Below are positions 227-8,331 of a DNA stretch of 16,299 nucleotides, piece after piece (the stretch's first letter is position 1; each line of letters opens with the position of its first letter). The stretch spans positions 1 to 16,299 of the forward strand of contig JBKAGE010000020.1 of assembly GCA_046290225.1 (NCBI GenBank). The letters run 5' to 3'. A program made the position numbers and the translations under genes. The notes below the pieces were generated by a model. It was not told the origin of the DNA and searched no databases. It was given only the letters and a program-made list of their open reading frames with translations. The stretch comes from Bradymonadia bacterium. GTDB taxonomy: Bacteria > Myxococcota_A > Bradymonadia > UBA7976 > UBA1532.

Positions 227-300
227 TTGGCGAGGCGGGGGTCGAACCCGCGACCTTCGGTCTGTCAAACCGCTGCTGCAACCAGCTGAGCTTCTCGCCA
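227..300 (-). tRNA. tRNA-Val(GAC), atypical (A8, G27.A43 mismatch), CCA not encoded
   Basis: Cloverleaf: acceptor TGGCGAG/CTCGCCA, anticodon loop TT-GAC-AG, T arm GCGGG-TTCGACC-CCCGC, discriminator A. Confidence 0.85.
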
Positions 301-302
301 TC

Positions 303-323
303 AATCAGCAATCAGCAATCAGC
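303..323. repeat. 3 x 7-bp tandem repeat (aatcagc) in tRNA spacer
   Basis: aatcagc-aatcagc-aatcagc; the equivalent spacer in the upstream unit has one variant copy (aatcggc, 874-880). Confidence 0.8.
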
Positions 324-396
324 ACGAATGGCAGGACTCGAACCTGCAACCTTCAGCTTAGGAAGCCGCCGCTCTCTCCAATTGAGCTACACTCGT
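323..396 (-). tRNA. tRNA-Arg(CCT), CCA not encoded
   Basis: Acceptor ACGAGTG/CATTCGT, D arm GCTC-AATTGGAGA-GAGC (A20), loop TT-CCT-AA, T loop TTCGAGT, G73. Confidence 0.92.
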
Positions 397-400
397 ATCG

Positions 401-475
401 TGGGACCGGTGGGACTCGAACCCACAACCGTCTGCTTAAAAGGCAGCTGCTCTGACCAAATTGAGCTACGATCCT
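401..475 (-). tRNA. tRNA-Lys(TTT), A1.C72 mismatch, CCA not encoded
   Basis: Acceptor AGGATCG/CGGTCCC, loop CT-TTT-AA, T arm GTGGG-TTCGAGT-CCCAC, A73. Confidence 0.9.
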
Positions 476-481
476 TCGAGG

Positions 482-555
482 CGAAATCGGTAGGACTCGA
501 ACCTACAGCCTCCTGCTCCGCAAGCAGGTGCTCTATCCACTTGAGCTACGACTTC
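482..555 (-). tRNA. tRNA-Arg(GCG), CCA not encoded
   Basis: Acceptor GAAGTCG/CGATTTC, D loop AAGTGGATA (A20), perfect anticodon stem CCTGC/GCAGG, loop TT-GCG-GA, G73. Confidence 0.92.
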
Positions 556-559
556 AAAA

Positions 560-632
560 TAGGACTGGCAGGACTTGAACCTGCATTGCCCGCGTATCAG
601 ACGGGATTCCTAACCACTTAGAAGACAGTCCT
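560..632 (-). tRNA. tRNA-Ile(GAT), atypical body, CCA not encoded
   Basis: Acceptor AGGACTG/CAGTCCT, D arm TTCT-AAGTGGTTA-GGAA, loop CT-GAT-AC, 4-nt variable loop, T loop TTCAAGT, A73. Confidence 0.82.
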
Positions 633-634
633 AT

Positions 635-795
635 AGAGCAGTATGAGGAGTGAACTGACACACCAGGCTCGCCCATCGACGAGATCCCAAGCTCAGAAAT
701 ACTCGATGATGCTTTGGCATCGTCTGCGATTTCTTCACGTGGCCTCTCGTCGATGTTCTTCGCCTTCTGTATCAGTTCACTCCTCATACTGCTCT
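635..795. mobile_element. 161-bp palindromic MITE-like element (or rod-shaped RNA) within the tRNA array
   Basis: Perfect 24-bp terminal inverted repeats (635-658 / 772-795) extending to 34 bp with 3 mismatches; inner 11-bp IR (674-684 / 745-755). No clean target-site duplication seen. Confidence 0.6.
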
Positions 796-871
796 GGTTG
801 GCGAGGCGGGGGTCGAACCCGCGACCTTCGGTTCGTGAAACCGCTGCTACGGCCTACTGAGCTTCTCGCCA
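795..871 (-). tRNA. tRNA-Val(CAC), atypical (A8, G27.A43), CCA encoded
   Basis: Near copy of 227..300 differing only in the D arm and anticodon loop (TT-CAC-GA); ends ACCA. Confidence 0.85.
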
Positions 872-879
872 TCAATCGG

Positions 880-953
880 CACGACTGGCAGGACTCGAAC
901 CTGCAACGTTCTGCTTAGAAGGCAGACGCTCTATCCACTTGAGCTACAGTCGC
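880..953 (-). tRNA. tRNA-Arg(TCT), CCA not encoded
   Basis: Acceptor GCGACTG/CAGTCGT, D loop AAGTGGATA, stem TCTGC/GCAGA, loop CT-TCT-AA, G73. Confidence 0.94.
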
Positions 954-956
954 GCA

Positions 957-1034
957 TGGTCGGATCGGTGGGACTCGAACCCACAACCGTCTGCTTAAGA
1001 GGCAGCTGCTCTGACCAAATTGAGCTACGATCCG
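957..1034 (-). tRNA. tRNA-Lys(CTT), CCA encoded
   Basis: Acceptor CGGATCG/CGATCCG, loop CT-CTT-AA, ends ACCA; near-identical to the Lys(TTT) gene. Confidence 0.94.
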
Positions 1035-1152
1035 ATGAGGGAGATCGAGATCTCCCAAAAGACTATCAATACACCCACAAAACGCACCTCTCTCCCTACC
1101 AGCCACAAACAGCCAGCCAACCAATACTCAAAAAACACAATTCAATAGTCAG

Positions 1153-1226
1153 AAGAGCGAGCAGGACTCGAACCTGCAGCCTCTTGCTTCGGAAACAAGC
1201 GCCCTATCCAATTGGGCCACCGCTCC
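1153..1226 (-). tRNA. tRNA-Arg(CCG), U73, CCA not encoded
   Basis: Acceptor GGAGCGG/TCGCTCT (two G.U), D arm GCCC-AATTGGATA-GGGC, loop TT-CCG-AA, T loop TTCGAGT. Confidence 0.88.
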
Positions 1227-1287
1227 TCAAAAAACCAATATCAAATCAAACACCTAACCTCCGCACCGTGCACCGCGGAGGCGCGCA

Positions 1288-1426
1288 GGCGACGCGCTTT
1301 GGTGGCTGAGCGTCGAGTTGGCGTGTATCTGTGGTGACTCAACCGGAAGCGTAGCAGCGCTACGCTGAGGATTGAGGCGCCGCAGAGACGCGTCAAATCG
1401 CCGCTCAGACGCCAAAGCGCGGCGCC
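1288..1426. repeat. 139-bp long imperfect hairpin
   Basis: Ungapped 55-bp arms 1288-1342 and 1372-1426 (44/55 Watson-Crick); inner hairpin agcgtagc-agc-gctacgct at 1348-1366. Confidence 0.85.
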
Positions 1427-1435
1427 GGAGCCCAT

Positions 1436-1470
1436 AAAAAAACCCGCCAATCCTTGAGGAGAGGCGGGTT
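1436..1470 (-). terminator. Intrinsic terminator (attenuator 3:4 helix) upstream of the tRNA array
   Basis: Minus strand AACCCGCC-TCTCCTCAAGGATT-GGCGGGTT, with a run of 7 T starting at the stem base; begins about 28 nt after the leader stop codon. Confidence 0.9.
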
Positions 1471-1498
1471 CTCTACTGAAACGCTTTTATGAGCAATT

Positions 1499-1606
1499 TC
1501 AGAAAGTTCCACCTCCTTCACGACGTACGCGAATCACCCGCAGACGGCGGACGGATTTCACCCGACGCTTGAGTCTGACGTTGACGATGGTGTTCTGGAC
1601 GTACAT
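1499..1606 (-). CDS. Putative attenuation leader peptide, 35 aa (MYVQNTIVNVRLKRRVKSVRRLRVIRVRREGGGTF)
   Basis: GGAG 9 nt before the ATG; 9 Arg, 7 Val, 2 Lys and 2 Ile codons; its 3' end is complementary to the terminator's 5' arm. Confidence 0.8.
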   Translation of the reverse strand: MYVQNTIVNVRLKRRVKSVRRLRVIRVRREGGGTF

Positions 1607-1661
1607 GAAGAAGGGCTCCGTAAAAACTGTGTCTGAATGTGTAATGCGTTCGACGTCACTG

Positions 1662-1690
1662 TTTGTATGTATTACGAACGCAGTGGTCAA
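1662..1690 (-). promoter_or_regulatory. Putative sigma70-type promoter for the leader/tRNA operon
   Basis: TTGACC (1690-1685), 17-bp spacer, TACAAA (1667-1662); A/T tract upstream (1704-1717). Confidence 0.5.
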
Positions 1691-1853: not shown

Positions 1854-2867
1854 ATGATCGACCTGCGCAGCGATACCGTCACCCGACCCACCCCGCCCAT
1901 GCTCGAGGCCATGACGAGCGCCGAAGTCGGTGACGACGTGTTGGGTGAGGATCCCACCGTCACGGCCCTCGAAACCAACATCGCTCAGCGGTTCGGGCAC
2001 GAGGCAGGCCTGTTCTGCCCATCCGGTACCATGACCAACCAGATCGCGCTGCAAGTGCACATGCGGCCCGGAGACGAGGTCATCTGCAGCGCCCTCGCTC
2101 ACATCTACTTGTACGAAGGTGGAGGCATTGCGGCCAACGCTGGCGCATCTGCCCGGCTCATGCAGGGTGAGCGGGGCATGTTCAGCGTCGATGACGCGCG
2201 GGCTGCAATTCGGGCAGATGATCCCCACTACCCCCGGACCCGGCTCATCGCCTTGGAAGACACCTGCAACCGTGGGGGCGGCATCACGTGGCCTGTGGAC
2301 GACATCAGCGCCATGCGGCAACTCGCCGACGATCATGCCCTCGCGCTTCATCTCGATGGCGCTCGGGTGTTCAACCGCCTCGTGGCCCGTGGAGAAGATG
2401 CACGGATCTACGGGCAGCTGTACCACTCCATCTCGATTTGCTTGTCCAAGGGCCTCGGCGCCCCGGTGGGCTCTGTCCTCGTGGGCAATGCCGACTTCAT
2501 CGCTCAGGCACGGCGAGTGCGCAAACGCCTCGGTGGAGGTATGCGACAGGCAGGCTACCTTGCTGCAGCAGGGCAATATGCCCTCGATCATCACGTGGAC
2601 CGCCTCGTGGAGGATCATCGACGGGCCGCACGGATCGCTGAGGCACTCGATGGGGTGTCAGGGGTCGCGCATGTCTGGTCCCCGGAGACCAACATCGTCA
2701 TCGGGACTCTGGCAGAGGGGGTCGAGCCGGGACAGTGGCTCGATCAGTTGAAGCAGGCGGGGGTGCTCGCCGGACGCTCCGGGCCTGGGCAGATCAGGAT
2801 GGTGACCCACCTGGACGTCGACGATGACGACGTAGCGCAGGTATGTCGAGCGCTCCAGCACATGTGA
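1854..2867 (+). CDS. ltaE: Low-specificity L-threonine aldolase (PLP-dependent)
   Basis: [11 protein letters not shown]-terminus, [14 protein letters not shown] and [10 protein letters not shown] motifs; GGAG at 1842-1845 supports the ATG at 1854 rather than the 1569 start. Confidence 0.92.
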
Positions 2868-4157: not shown

Positions 4158-4445
4158 TCAGGCGATCGGGTGCATACAGCTCTGAATCACCGACTCTACC
4201 CCAGGGCACGTGTTGGCATAGTCGAGGTGCACCGAGGGGAAGGTCTCGGTGAACTGTCGAAACACATGCTCGGCAAAAATCGGGCTGATCTCGTCTACCC
4301 CACGAAAATCGAGCAATATCGCATCGTACCGTTCGAGACCGGCCATCATCCGCTGGGCCTGGGCTTCTGTGTCGAGACGATCTGCCCCCATGCTCGCGAG
4401 AGCCACTGGGATGCGGACCTTCATGGGCTGACTCTTCTCATTCAT
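4158..4445 (-). CDS. Small STAS-like (DUF4325-type) protein
   Basis: ILLDFRGVDEISPIFAEHVF resembles the LDFxGV...PSFADE pattern; AAGGAG RBS. Confidence 0.7.
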   Translation of the reverse strand: MNEKSQPMKVRIPVALASMGADRLDTEAQAQRMMAGLERYDAILLDFRGVDEISPIFAEHVFRQFTETFPSVHLDYANTCPGVESVIQSCMHPIA

Positions 4446-4733: not shown

Positions 4734-6518
4734 TCAGCGCAGTGCTCGACCTCGAGCATGTTCGAGGCGCTCATGAAGCGTCTGCATAGAAATATCTCGA
4801 TACGCCCCCGGCAACCAGCGCCGGCTGCTGGCTTCTTGCACCGCCAGGAGCTCCATGTACTCCATCATGGCGGTCTCGCGGGTGGGCAAGTAATCCCGGG
4901 CAGCCTGGGCCAGATAGGGGCCGGTGAGGGTGTCAGCAGCCTCTTCAGTTGCCTGCTCATCCGTCTGATCGGCGTTGGGGTTCAGCCCAGCGTGTAGATC
5001 GTCCCAGGCCATGAGCAACAATGCCTCGAGATCTGCTGCGCCGTAATCGTGCAAATCTTCGAGGATCGGCAGCAGCACCTCGTCGGGGAGATCGACCTTG
5101 AGTTTGTGGCGCCTGATCTGTGCCCGAACAATGGCCGCTCTCTCGGTGGAGCTTTGCGGCCGGAAGAACGGGATCTTGGTGTCGAAACGTCCTGGCCGCT
5201 TCATGTCGGTGTCGAGCTTGTCGGGGCGGTTGGTCATCATCATGAAGATGATGCGGCCCCGGTGATCGGGATCGCTCATGAACTCCTTGAGCCGGGCCAT
5301 CACCCGAGAGTTCACCCCAGAGTCGCCCTCGTCGCCGCCCATGGCTCGATCGCCCTCGTCGATGATGACCAGGATCTCACCAAGGCTCTCGATAACGCCG
5401 AGCACCTTCTCAAGGTTGGCCTCGGTGCTGCCCACCCACTTGTCCCGGAAGTTCTTGAGCTTGATGGCGGCGAGGCCACTCTCCCGTGCAAAGGCTTCAG
5501 CGATGAAGCTCTTGCCGGTACCCATGGGGCCCACGAGCATGACGCCCATGGGCACCTGGGCCCTCCGGCCGGCCTTCACGTGATCGACGATGCGCATGAG
5601 CCCTTGCTTGATGGGCTCGAGGCCGCCAACAACGGTGAAGTCGTGGTCGGGGTTGATGACCTCGATGAGGCCGTGACACTCCTGCTCGAGGATCTCTTTC
5701 TTGCGGGCGGCCACCTGCTCCACGGGCAAGCTGTCGTCGGGGCCCTCGGTGAGGGTGCCCGACTTCATGAGATCGTCCACCTGTCGCAGCTGCAACCCTG
5801 CCGTGAGGCGTACGAGGCCCGAGCCACGCTCTTCGCTGAGACCAGAATGAGCGTGGCTGAGGAACCGCGCCCGCTCCAGACCCGCCGGCAAGGGCACCTT
5901 GATGGCCACGATTCTGGGGTTCCGGGTGAGGCGCTGGCTCAATGACGACAAGGTGCTGCACAGCATGATCACCATGTTGTCGTTGTGTACCACCTCGTCC
6001 CAGAGAGACCACCGATGCAAGGTGGCGGCGGCGGTGCGATCCATCACGCTGAGGCTGGCGGCGTCACCGGCGGGGGTGATGAGGGAGCCATAGTGCATGA
6101 TGATGGCGCAGGGCATCTCGGCCCGCGTGAGCAAGACCTCGAGGGCAGGCAGCACCACGGCAGCGTCCCGCTCCATGCCCAGAGCGTCGTCGAGGGCCCG
6201 CACGAGTGCGGCGTCAGAGGTCGCCGCAGCCCGGATCATGTTGGCCTCGACGAGGGCCCGAGCAGCGAGCACGGCGTGGGACCGCTTGGGAAAGTACACG
6301 CCCTTGCCGGGGTCGAAGTGCACCACCAGCTTGCCGCTGGGCTCGAAGAAGGCATCGAGGAAGTCGGGCATGCTCCACACCCGACCCCCAGCGAAGATCA
6401 CGTCGTGCACATTGCCATGCAAGATGAACTGCCCAGTGTCAGTGTGCAGATATCGATCCCGAAGGGTCTGCATCCACTGGGGGAGATCAGGGGCGCGGGG
6501 CAGATCGAGGGCGGCCAT
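4734..6518 (-). CDS. Classic-clade AAA+ ATPase with one intact module and a long N-terminal region
   Basis: Walker A GPMGTGKS, pore loop KWVG, Walker [36 protein letters not shown] supports the start at 6518. Confidence 0.9.
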
Positions 6519-6631
6519 GGGGACCTCGCTGTACGGCAGAGATGGGAAGAGAAATGTGAGGTGGGCGTGATGCACATGCATCACGTAGCGCAGTATGACT
6601 CAGCGCAGTATCACTGCAGTGACGACCAGAC

Positions 6632-7345
6632 TCAGAGGGTCTTGTTGCCCTCGGTCTCGCCGCCACCACCACCGCCTTCACGAGCAGCCTTGAGCGCAGC
6701 GAGGCGGGCCTTGGCCTTGGCGGTGCCGGTCTGGGCGCGGATCTTCTCGAGCTTGCCCTCGAGGGACTCTTCCTTGAGCTCGGTGTTGATCTGCACCTCG
6801 GCCTTCACCTTCTCGGCGTAGTCGCGCACGTTCTGCAGAGCCTTGACCTCTTCGTCGACAGAGATGCCGTCGAGCTGCTCCTGGATCTGCTTGCGGGCCT
6901 CGGCGTCCTTGATCTGGGCCACGACCTTGTCGCGCTCGCGCTTGAGCTTCTCGATCTCGGACTGCACGTTGCGCAGCGAGTCTTTGGCGGCCTCAGCGTC
7001 GCGGCTGGCCTGCTCGATGTCGCGACGGTAATCGGCGAGTTGCGCTTCGAGCTCTTCCTGGCGCTCGAGGAGCACCAGGGCGGACTCGTCATCACCGCTG
7101 TCGACGGCCACCTGCACCTGCAGCCTGATCTCTTCGAGGGCCGACTCGGCCTTCTGGATCTTGGCCTCGAGCTGGGCCCGATGCTTGATGAGCCCCGCCG
7201 CGGCGGTCTTGAGCTTCTGGTACTTCTCGGTCATGGCGTTGATCGCGTTCTCGAAGGCGATCTCCGGATGCTTTTCTTCCATCCGGCCCACGAACATGCT
7301 CAAGAAGCCCTTCCACAGGTTGTACATCCGGGACATGAAACCCAT
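6632..7345 (-). CDS. PspA/IM30 (ESCRT-III-like) family coiled-coil protein
   Basis: Amphipathic N-terminus MGFMSRMYNLWKG, E..HPE hinge, 'AVDSGDDESA' turn, long coiled coil, C-terminal 'ARLAALKA'; GGAGG RBS. Confidence 0.88.
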   Translation of the reverse strand: MGFMSRMYNLWKGFLSMFVGRMEEKHPEIAFENAINAMTEKYQKLKTAAAGLIKHRAQLEAKIQKAESALEEIRLQVQVAVDSGDDESALVLLERQEELEAQLADYRRDIEQASRDAEAAKDSLRNVQSEIEKLKRERDKVVAQIKDAEARKQIQEQLDGISVDEEVKALQNVRDYAEKVKAEVQINTELKEESLEGKLEKIRAQTGTAKAKARLAALKAAREGGGGGGETEGNKTL

Positions 7346-7347
7346 CT

Positions 7348-8331
7348 TCAGACCTCCAGCTTCTCAAGGTCATGCGCCGTGAGACCCATCTCGGCCCCCA
7401 GCTGCTTGACCAAATCGATGTTTCGCAAATTGTCGGCAAGCGTCTGAAGCAAGAACAGACGCGCCTTGGTGTGCATGGCTTCGAGGCGACCGTCATCGAC
7501 ACCGAAAGCTTCGGCGAACTCGGTGATGCGGACGCGCTCTTCGACGGAAAACTCTCCGTCGGCGTAGATGAGGAGAAAACACGAGATGAAGAACGCTTCT
7601 TCCACCTGAGCACCTTTCAGTGCGCTGGCGGCCTCGGCGAGGTCAAAGCCCTTCTGTCGCAGGGCCTCGAGCTGCTCTGAGGTGTCGGCGTCTTCGAGCC
7701 CGCAGAAATCGGCGATGAGAGCCACCTCCGCGGGGTGCTCGCCGTCAGCGCCGGCGAGGGTGAGCAGACCACGACCGATGAGGCGGGTCTGGGCGTCGGT
7801 GAGCTGCAGGCTCTCGTAGAACTCTTCGGCAGTCTCGAGCACGGCGGCGTCGGCGAGGGCCTCGACGTCGATGGTGCCGAGGCCCATCTCACCGGCGATC
7901 TCCAAAACGGCATCGCGGTTGCGCACGCCCTCGGCGATCTCCTTGAGCAGGAACAGCCGGGCGCGACGATGCAGACCGTCGAGGGTGGGCTGGTCGAGAT
8001 CGAAGAGCTGCGCGAAGGCGGCCACCTTGGCCCGCTCTTCGTCGGAGTGGTTGCCGTCTGCGTACACCAGCATGTAGCAGGTGATGAAGAAGGCCTCGAC
8101 GAGATGCTCACCGCCGGCTTTCACGGCCTCGGCGGCGGCGCCGTCGAAGCCTTCAGCCCGCATGGCCGCCAGTACATCTTCAGGGCTGCTGCTGCTCCCA
8201 CTGTAGAAGTCGGCGACAAGAGCCAGCTCTGACTCGTGCACCCCATCGACAGCGGCGAGATCGAGCAAACCCCGGCAGATCCACTCGGTCTGGGCATCAG
8301 TGAGCTGGATGCCCTCGTAGAGTTCCTGCAT
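7348..8331 (-). CDS. Tandem TerB-like domain protein
   Basis: Two ~160-aa internal repeats (QLTDAQT..I.RGLL.LA..DG.H..E; YADG..S.EER); stop lies 2 nt before the PspA start. Confidence 0.8.
   Translation of the reverse strand: MQELYEGIQLTDAQTEWICRGLLDLAAVDGVHESELALVADFYSGSSSSPEDVLAAMRAEGFDGAAAEAVKAGGEHLVEAFFITCYMLVYADGNHSDEERAKVAAFAQLFDLDQPTLDGLHRRARLFLLKEIAEGVRNRDAVLEIAGEMGLGTIDVEALADAAVLETAEEFYESLQLTDAQTRLIGRGLLTLAGADGEHPAEVALIADFCGLEDADTSEQLEALRQKGFDLAEAASALKGAQVEEAFFISCFLLIYADGEFSVEERVRITEFAEAFGVDDGRLEAMHTKARLFLLQTLADNLRNIDLVKQLGAEMGLTAHDLEKLEV

Follow-up and report, generated by a model that had tools for sequence, protein, structure and literature searches.

A probable leader-peptide attenuator in front of a spare tRNA operon in a Bradymonadia genome

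The genome of a Bradymonadia bacterium contains an operon of nine transfer RNA (tRNA) genes that, judging from its sequence, is probably governed by a ribosome-mediated (leader-peptide) transcription attenuator. The operon lies on contig JBKAGE010000020.1 (C20; C-numbers denote contigs of this 8.58-Mb assembly unless another genome is named), and the window analysed here is that whole contig of 16,299 nucleotides (nt; 16.3 kb). Sequence and folding display the parts of the switch, their order and spacing, an amino-acid match between leader and tRNA array, and the alternative RNA pairings. The tRNA genes were called with ARAGORN and cross-checked with the Rfam tRNA model (cut-off 29 bits). ARAGORN places all nine window genes on the minus strand at 1226-227 (four for Arg, two for Val, two for Lys and one for Ile), and all nine score 50.6-67.8 bits with the Rfam model. 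An initial annotation of this DNA had described a minus-strand promoter, ribosome-binding site, 35-codon open reading frame (ORF), terminator and nine tRNA genes for these four amino acids, and every element was found where it had been placed:

1685..1690, minus strand: -35 hexamer TTGACC, read from the sequence
1662..1667, minus strand: -10 hexamer TACAAA, after a 17-nt spacer
1616..1619, minus strand: Shine-Dalgarno sequence GGAG, 9 nt 5' of the ATG
1499..1606, minus strand: leader ORF of 35 codons, ATG at 1606, TGA at 1501-1499, peptide MYVQNTIVNVRLKRRVKSVRRLRVIRVRREGGGTF
1509..1516, minus strand: region 2, GGAGGTGG, predicted 5' strand of the antiterminator, ending 7 nt 5' of the stop codon
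1476..1502, minus strand: small hairpin between stop codon and terminator, inside the predicted antiterminator helix
1467-1460, minus strand: segment of the terminator 5' arm, CCGCCTCT, pairing partner of region 2
1436..1472, minus strand: intrinsic terminator, stem CCCGCC/GGCGGG at 1468-1463/1448-1443, seven Ts at 1442-1436
795..1226, minus strand: array block 1, Arg(ccg) 1226-1152, Lys(ctt) 1034-957, Arg(tct) 953-878, Val(cac) 871-795
227..633, minus strand: array block 2, Ile(gat) 633-559, Arg(gcg) 555-480, Lys(ttt) 475-400, Arg(cct) 396-322, Val(gac) 300-227

The leader peptide contains nine Arg, seven Val, two Lys and two Ile residues. Within codons 7-29, 19 of 23 encode these four amino acids and 18 of 23 can be read by anticodons of the array, as the initial annotation had counted; AGG is the cognate codon absent from the leader and GTA the codon that lacks an array tRNA, again in agreement with it. 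The A/T tract TTTTTTTGAAAAAAG precedes the -35 hexamer, and a similar tract is seen at the genome's housekeeping tRNA promoters. At the Shine-Dalgarno site, the string GGAGCC(C)TT recurs 5' of two further leaders, on C79 and C77, described below.

In the mechanism that we propose, RNA polymerase would start at the TTGACC/TACAAA promoter and a ribosome would translate the 35-codon leader. With rapid decoding of the Arg, Val, Lys and Ile codons, the ribosome would reach the stop codon and cover GGAGGTGG, the CCCGCC/GGCGGG hairpin and its T-run would form, and transcription would terminate at about 1436. A ribosome lingering on the 19-20 Arg/Val/Lys/Ile codons would leave GGAGGTGG free to pair with CCGCCTCT as the 5' arm emerges; that pairing would prevent the terminator, and polymerase would continue into the nine tRNA genes. 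Because the products are the molecules sensed, the arrangement would provide direct negative feedback on the decoding capacity for one amino-acid group. We infer translation of the ORF, efficient termination and read-through on stalling; candidate causes of slow decoding in nature are tRNA loss, poor charging, high demand and drugs.

The same arrangement recurs elsewhere in the genome. A genome-wide scan for a promoter plus a terminator gave 22 matches. A loose scan for an ORF plus a terminator (291 pairs) was dropped as too noisy in favour of a stringent one (TTGACN-N16-18-TA promoter, Shine-Dalgarno sequence, ORF of at least 14 codons, hairpin/T-run terminator), which gave nine. An antiterminator duplex of -14.7 kcal/mol or stronger is present in six of these: five stand before divergent tRNA genes (C20, C37, C42, C79 and C77) and one before a paralogue of the EF-Tu gene (C57). 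The remaining three matches are the rpsO gene and a pair of ORFs overlapping tRNAs. All six modules share a TTGAC[AC]-N17-TA promoter. Besides the window, they are:

C37: Leu/Ser/Tyr set plus one Tyr-like tRNA with anticodon UGU; leader MHFISNTSNSRLSSLDLRLSYCASLLLSALEGSSS
C42: Asp/Glu/Phe/Gln set; leader MFCFFDTDVLECALFQQEQERFEQDIEGGNLA
C79: Ala/Gly/Thr set; leader VFFYTTHIIDVAALSATRRTDAFEATAGLCVEGPSDAGNAQASWLRAGKGIGLIGGVTP
C77: lone divergent tRNA-Trp; leader MTALFHTDDHGRWWPMTRSGGAFSTC, with Trp-Trp
C57:44698-43014, minus strand: divergent EF-Tu gene (398 amino acids) behind a leader ORF and terminator of the same build as the tRNA leaders; leader MYRRFSTLVDQCLCASQLLSVSLLSSSDLLLDPEGGGLG, Leu/Ser-rich

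Housekeeping-type tRNA clusters present a different picture: the sequences upstream of three of them (C35a, C35b and C78) hold no such leader module, and at C35a the promoter lies directly 5' of the first tRNA. Two further candidates, at C42:38124 (VQFVAHHMCIPHPVMPGCPGHHPQVNCMLARPMPGQR, before tRNA-Cys and tRNA-Pro) and at about 41040 on C44 (MTFDTEQHDVNH, before tRNA-Asn and tRNA-His), were not accepted, having no clear T-run terminator. The stretch C42:38124-39797 comprises a 37-codon ORF rich in His, Pro, Met and Cys, an odd tRNA-Cys, a 305-amino-acid ORF with no NCBIfam match, and tRNA-Pro(ggg); the 305-amino-acid product we take, from its DxDxxxDD-type N-terminus alone, to be nucleoside-hydrolase-like. 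The amino acids absent from the five clear modules are His, Pro, Met, Cys and Asn.

Each tRNA leader matches its own tRNA set only. Over the whole ORF, the codons readable by the leader's own array number 19 of 34 in the window, 20 of 34 on C37, 17 of 31 on C42 and 21 of 58 on C79; each of the other three large arrays could read only 3-5 of a leader's codons, or 9-11 of the 58 in the long leader of C79. In binomial tests against genome codon usage, taken from 1273 long ORFs, the own-array match has p = 3.5e-6 for the window, 1.9e-7 for C37, 2.9e-5 for C42, 0.041 for C79 and 0.049 for Trp, and every test of a tRNA leader against the codon set of any other array gives p > 0.05. The EF-Tu leader on C57 matches the Leu/Ser/Tyr set (18 of 38 codons, p = 4.5e-5). 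An empirical background, made up of 288 short ORFs of this genome that are followed by a terminator, has a median match of 0.30 and a 95th percentile of 0.45; for a match to any array the window leader ranks second and the C42 leader third, and the C79 leader would not stand out. Taken together, the leaders hold a cognate codon for 30 of 32 anticodons of their own arrays, compared with a mean of 19.4 and a maximum of 29 for random ORFs in 5000 trials.

The codon bias belongs to the reading frame of the leader. Counts of readable codons in frames 0, +1 and +2 are 19, 7 and 8 for the window, 20, 8 and 10 for C37, 17, 1 and 2 for C42, and 21, 9 and 9 for C79. This bears on a reading in which the leader RNA acts without translation, by sensing tRNA directly in the manner of a T-box or by binding a protein, with the open frame incidental. 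The leader RNA of the window is indeed strongly structured, folding better than all 200 of 200 shuffled sequences (z = -4.45). Nonetheless we regard action without translation as very unlikely, as the match to the array is specific to the frame, and the leaders diverge widely in sequence yet keep frame, length and stop position. The Shine-Dalgarno sequence, moreover, lies 8-9 nt before the start wherever the spacing was read (the window, C79, C77 and a leader of Albitalea, introduced below). Searches with Rfam gave no match to a T-box or other cis-regulatory family, with Trp_leader, His_leader, Leu_leader and Thr_leader among the families covered, either in the window (E up to 1) or in eight loci that include the C37, C42, C79 and C77 leaders (E up to 0.1).

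A leader of the same build in the same genome serves, on its sequence, as an internal positive control for ribosome-mediated attenuation. At C79:227115-226969, on the minus strand, the peptide MNTLLTHADVIEAASKGSWWWWISSEGVRVSG contains four tandem Trp codons; a G-rich stretch, TCGGAGGGGGTC, lies 12 nt before its stop codon, and its terminator, AACCCGCC...GCGGGTTTTTTT, is near-identical to that of the window. The ORF behind it is presumably trpE, for anthranilate synthase component I, as read from the N-terminus alone. The organism would thus use this build for a classical amino-acid attenuator, and the tRNA leaders look like retargeted copies of it.

Folding places the competing structures at equivalent positions in all of these leaders. 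The terminator hairpin of the window has a folding energy of -16.8 kcal/mol. When four leaders are folded only as far as the terminator 5' arm, a G-rich stretch close to the ORF end becomes the pairing partner of this arm in each of them (GGAGGUGG, GAGGGG, GAGGGGGGG and GGAGGGGU); the pairing holds for a ribosome more than about 8-10 codons before the stop and is lost with a ribosome at the stop. The same pairing, lost in the same way, is seen in all seven leaders of the genome including trpL, and in all seven the antiterminator helix encloses a small hairpin. For the window it joins GGAGGTGG (1516-1509) to CCGCCTCT (1467-1460), with a best 12-nt duplex of -14.7 kcal/mol. Across eight leaders, seven from this genome and one from another, the best 12-nt partner of the terminator 5' arm ends 6-16 nt before the stop codon in every case. 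The gap from stop codon to terminator is 20-33 nt across leaders, and the spacer from terminator to first tRNA 84-297 nt across modules. A MAFFT alignment of the eight leader 3' parts is out of register for base-pair columns, and we claim no column-wise covariation.

The tRNAs behind these leaders are, by their sequences, a divergent spare set. ARAGORN finds 96 tRNAs in the genome and the Rfam model 89, compared with 20-57 Rfam matches in each of 25 same-family genomes. The extra genes are grouped by amino acid into arrays of 1-10 members. For 32 of the 34 tRNAs behind leaders the same anticodon occurs elsewhere in the genome, the exceptions being Arg(gcg) and Ile(gat), and the identity of the 34 to the best-matching non-array tRNA for the same amino acid is 59-87%. 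By eye, several array tRNAs also appear to begin with an unusual first base pair. The EF-Tu paralogue on C57 is 56% identical to the housekeeping tuf product and scores just above the NCBIfam EF-Tu equivalog cut-off (527.1 against 522.4 bits). We rejected the idea that the arrays are a mobile element or a binning error: other arrays lie on contigs of 107-413 kb, their promoters are housekeeping-like and the trpE leader is of the same build. Among the 15 window ORFs scanned, which are ordinary chromosomal genes, there is no integrase or phage family.

Homologous systems in other genomes were reached solely through the EF-Tu paralogue. A DNA search with the leader region in 41 genomes, its own included, returned itself and copies of a palindromic repeat and nothing else; a search with array plus leader returned single-tRNA matches only (401 genomes of the phylum, including its own; plasmids; phages). 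In a tree of 16 EF-Tu sequences, a four-member clade, here called EF-Tu2, separates from 12 canonical EF-Tu with 100/100 support. Its members come from the Bradymonadia genome, a Myxococcota metagenome-assembled genome (MAG; 64% identical), an uncultured Nannocystaceae MAG and Albitalea terrae S-16, and three of these four genomes have large tRNA arrays. The Myxococcota EF-Tu2 lies behind MSFIPPLADLGRSLDSSSASSSSCARRDLR, which has GGAGGG before its stop codon and is followed by a terminator.

The initial annotation had suggested looking for a leader and terminator before tRNA arrays of other genomes, and matched leaders do occur in the Nannocystaceae MAG and in A. terrae. The Nannocystaceae MAG, with 88 tRNA matches, has a TTGACA promoter and the leader MKRSTKYDHASTVTVVVDIVTHVGDKIHTC before a Thr/Val/Asp/Ile/His(/Lys) sub-array, which can read 22 of its 29 codons. 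Weaker cases there are the leader of a Glu/Asn sub-array (7 of 29) and MWMVRPYRQQA before a Gln sub-array. A. terrae S-16, a cultured and named isolate, has 62 tRNA matches and, on its contig C25, an 18-tRNA array for 18 amino acids. Upstream of that array are a TTGACG-17-TACAGT promoter, a Shine-Dalgarno site and a 69-codon ORF that uses all 20 amino acids and ends in ...PGEGGA; a terminator follows 28 nt 3' of the stop codon, before the array, and the leader holds a cognate codon for 18 of 18 array anticodons. Across genomes, then, the leaders mirror their arrays in content: those before group-specific arrays are group-specific themselves, and the all-purpose array has an all-amino-acid leader.

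The link to EF-Tu raises another interpretation, in which the same attenuator hardware reports a general slowing of elongation, by antibiotics that act on EF-Tu or the ribosome or by stress, and the amino-acid bias sets sensitivity only; the modules would then make up a drug or stress response akin to antibiotic-sensing leader peptides. Arguing for it, a module of the same build would control the divergent EF-Tu paralogue, and the EF-Tu2-type genes of both the Myxococcota MAG and A. terrae lie behind a short ORF and terminator. The A. terrae gene is flanked by two long ORFs that we take, from their N-termini alone, to encode MFS transporters. The trn operon of Anabaena PCC 7120 points the same way: in the accessible text of the reports it is an extra, redundant tRNA set, silent and turned on under translational stress (PMC8421152, PMC10272220, PMC4758250), with activity under such stress reported in the first two. 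Counter to this, five leaders that each match their own tRNA set only would be superfluous in a general sensor, as would a Trp-Trp leader before a lone tRNA-Trp, and for the identically built trpE leader specificity for Trp is the simplest reading. We consider a purely general signal unlikely.

Several observations weigh against an attenuator at the window, or against the reach of the comparison. The window antiterminator is the weakest of the set, its -14.7 kcal/mol facing a rival partner at -11.9. Equilibrium folding keeps the window terminator favoured at every ribosome position (P of at least 0.79) but one (0.51), and likewise favours the C79 terminator at most positions; since the terminator dominates at equilibrium, the switch must be kinetic, as in trp. 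Chance duplexes are common in this GC-rich genome, with 160 of the 291 ORF/terminator pairs of the loose scan at -9 kcal/mol or stronger. Enrichment is just marginal in the C79 and Trp leaders, and the six modules of the genome are probably paralogues rather than independent trials of the architecture. In the Nannocystaceae MAG, the leader terminators have no clear T-runs. One sub-array there (Gly/Arg/Ala/Trp/Cys) has a promoter directly upstream and no leader.

The initial annotation had further proposed that the array senses its own codons. This stands for amino acids, and at the level of single anticodons it is not supported: synonymous resampling of the same peptides reaches the observed 30 anticodons in 1518 of 5000 trials (538 of 5000 with strict pairing). 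Because resampling so often equals the observed coverage, the signal in the leaders is one of amino-acid composition. The broader proposal, a leader-peptide attenuator that gates spare tRNAs, is borne out by the further modules, the trpE control, the shared geometry and the two additional genomes.

A further objection is that there is no switch at all. The ORF and terminator would then be a separate small unit, encoding a small protein or a small RNA, the tRNAs would be transcribed from a promoter in the spacer, and the likeness in composition would be coincidence or by-product. The long spacers before the first tRNA give room for this. In the window, the 209 nt from the terminator T-run to the first tRNA (1227-1435) are mostly filled by a mobile palindromic repeat and may hold a promoter; the dominance of the terminator at equilibrium also fits. 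A simple consensus scan of positions 1-2400 returned no promoter-like and no terminator-like site, missing those of the attenuator because the -10 hexamer ends in A and the terminator stem is interrupted, and it offered no promoter in the spacer either. Against a free-standing unit, matching leaders occur at five tRNA loci of the genome and at more in two others, and the stop codon lies 6-16 nt past the antiterminator strand in eight of eight leaders, a placement that would have no purpose in an independent gene. We judge the absence of any switch very unlikely.

The remaining features of the window are context for the attenuator:

1259..1432, no strand: long imperfect palindrome (z = -6.26), a dispersed-repeat copy between terminator and first tRNA
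635..795, no strand: second palindromic repeat, within the array, with perfect inverted ends of about 24 nt and a 91% identical copy at C1:54467-54629
1857..2867, plus strand: beta-eliminating lyase of threonine-aldolase type (PF01212, E = 2.3e-94), a divergent neighbour

The repeat at 1259-1432 does not belong to the switch; other contigs hold 14 further partial matches to it, at 69-83% identity. Farther along, positions 4734-8331 on the minus strand encode an AAA ATPase (616 amino acids), a PspA/IM30 family protein and a TerB-domain protein, a group that resembles a membrane-stress module, and a STAS-like DUF4325 ORF lies at 4158-4445. Positions 1-226, 3' of the last tRNA, resemble C24:1-179 and belong to another repeat family that breaks the assembly. 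On C24 that repeat is followed by two array-type tRNA-Arg genes (acg and tcg), and a 16S ribosomal RNA gene starts 6 kb on, at the contig end; with these genes on C24, the Arg tRNAs that read CGA are encoded apart from the window array.

Two further sets of unusual tRNA genes were seen. Within the Leu/Ser/Tyr array, at C37:77832-77917, ARAGORN assigns Thr(UGU) to an 86-nt tRNA whose body and long variable arm are those of the tRNA-Tyr genes beside it; this may be a tRNA of Tyr type in which the anticodon loop is shifted or enlarged. At C34:374633-375087, just 5' of two tRNA-Pro genes, are three tandem tRNA-like genes of 107-116 nt that match the Rfam model end to end (47-52 bits) and have, in the anticodon region, some 35 nt of inserted sequence (core TCCGACTG...GATGTCTTACTTCG). 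In the Nannocystaceae MAG, an ORF on its contig C38 sits between two tRNA sub-arrays; by eye, we take it to be NYN/LabA-like.

With described attenuators the window shares an ORF with a Shine-Dalgarno sequence and start codon, an enrichment in cognate codons, an intrinsic terminator and a predicted antiterminator that is masked at the stop codon. What follows is different: nine tRNA genes and no protein gene, whether for biosynthesis, transport or a synthetase. The ilvGMEDA leader of Escherichia coli and Salmonella carries Leu, Val and Ile codons, and the thr leader carries Thr and Ile codons. Both resemble the window in having a short translated leader with codons for several amino acids, and a choice between terminator and antiterminator that is decided by ribosome position. 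They differ in that here tRNA genes are regulated and no protein is made, the sensed molecule is itself the product, up to four amino acids are spread over about 20 codons with no tight run, and a set of leaders divides the amino acids within one genome. The trpE leader of the same genome has the same build, a G-rich stretch and a near-identical terminator, and puts them to classical use, with four tandem Trp codons before a putative anthranilate synthase ORF. The pheMST attenuator of E. coli, which controls phenylalanyl-tRNA synthetase, likewise sets a component of the translation apparatus by leader-peptide attenuation and senses charged tRNA, but its target is a synthetase, a protein, for one amino acid. 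The T-box binds uncharged tRNA directly, without translation, and controls synthetase and amino-acid genes; it too couples the state of a given tRNA to a choice between terminator and antiterminator, whereas the window and the eight loci have no T-box match and translation would be required here.

The Anabaena trn operon offers a parallel in content, its extra tRNA genes being redundant with the housekeeping set in the accessible text (PMC8421152). That operon is described, in text likewise accessible in part, as controlled by a protein repressor, TrcR (PMC10272220). Our arrays differ from it and from other long arrays in having 1-10 genes sorted by amino-acid group, with no TrcR-type control seen near the array: no regulator gene adjoins it, and within the window only a LysR-type gene, at a distance of 13 kb, was identified as a regulator, although no search for TrcR homologues was made. 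A tRNA array unit has been defined, in the accessible part of the source, as 20 or more tRNA genes with a density of at least two per kb (PMC4758250); with nine genes in 1.0 kb, the window array has that density and falls short of that number. In antibiotic-sensing leaders such as ermBL and bmrCD, a ribosome stalled in a short upstream ORF also remodels the downstream RNA, but there, as far as the accessible text goes, a drug and the nascent peptide cause the stall and there is no match to a tRNA set (PMC8274638, PMC4191407). The words 'attenuat', 'leader' and 'terminator' are absent from PMC8421152, 'attenuat' and 'leader' are absent from PMC4758250, and PMC2965389 makes no mention of tRNA genes. 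Searches of the open full-text literature (subscription-only papers lie outside this scope) turned up neither a tRNA operon nor an EF-Tu gene described as being under leader-peptide control, and the initial annotation likewise knew of no such operon. The mechanism is of a known kind, and the target, tRNA genes, and the feedback logic are new.

To our knowledge, the control of individual tRNA levels in bacteria is largely unexplained beyond growth-rate control of promoters. If the attenuator operates as proposed, tRNA genes would receive direct feedback, in which the ribosome tests the supply of a tRNA group and the result decides on its synthesis. The purpose and the silencing of extra tRNA arrays would be explained, and the divergent EF-Tu would come under the same control. 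A swap of leaders is then predicted to swap specificity, and A. terrae S-16, as a named isolate with the same arrangement, is a possible bench model. More tentatively, and as a possibility that we hold to be somewhat short of an even chance, the modules together may form a second decoding kit: a full spare tRNA set in operons by amino-acid group plus a dedicated EF-Tu, each unit behind a codon-matched attenuator, through which the cell would measure decoding speed for each group and top up exactly those ternary complexes that are short, on a principle that, with leaders either group-specific or all-amino-acid, would recur in Myxococcota and in a betaproteobacterium. This would be a general and so far undescribed form of tRNA gene regulation, and likely an answer to tRNA-cleaving or translation-blocking attack.

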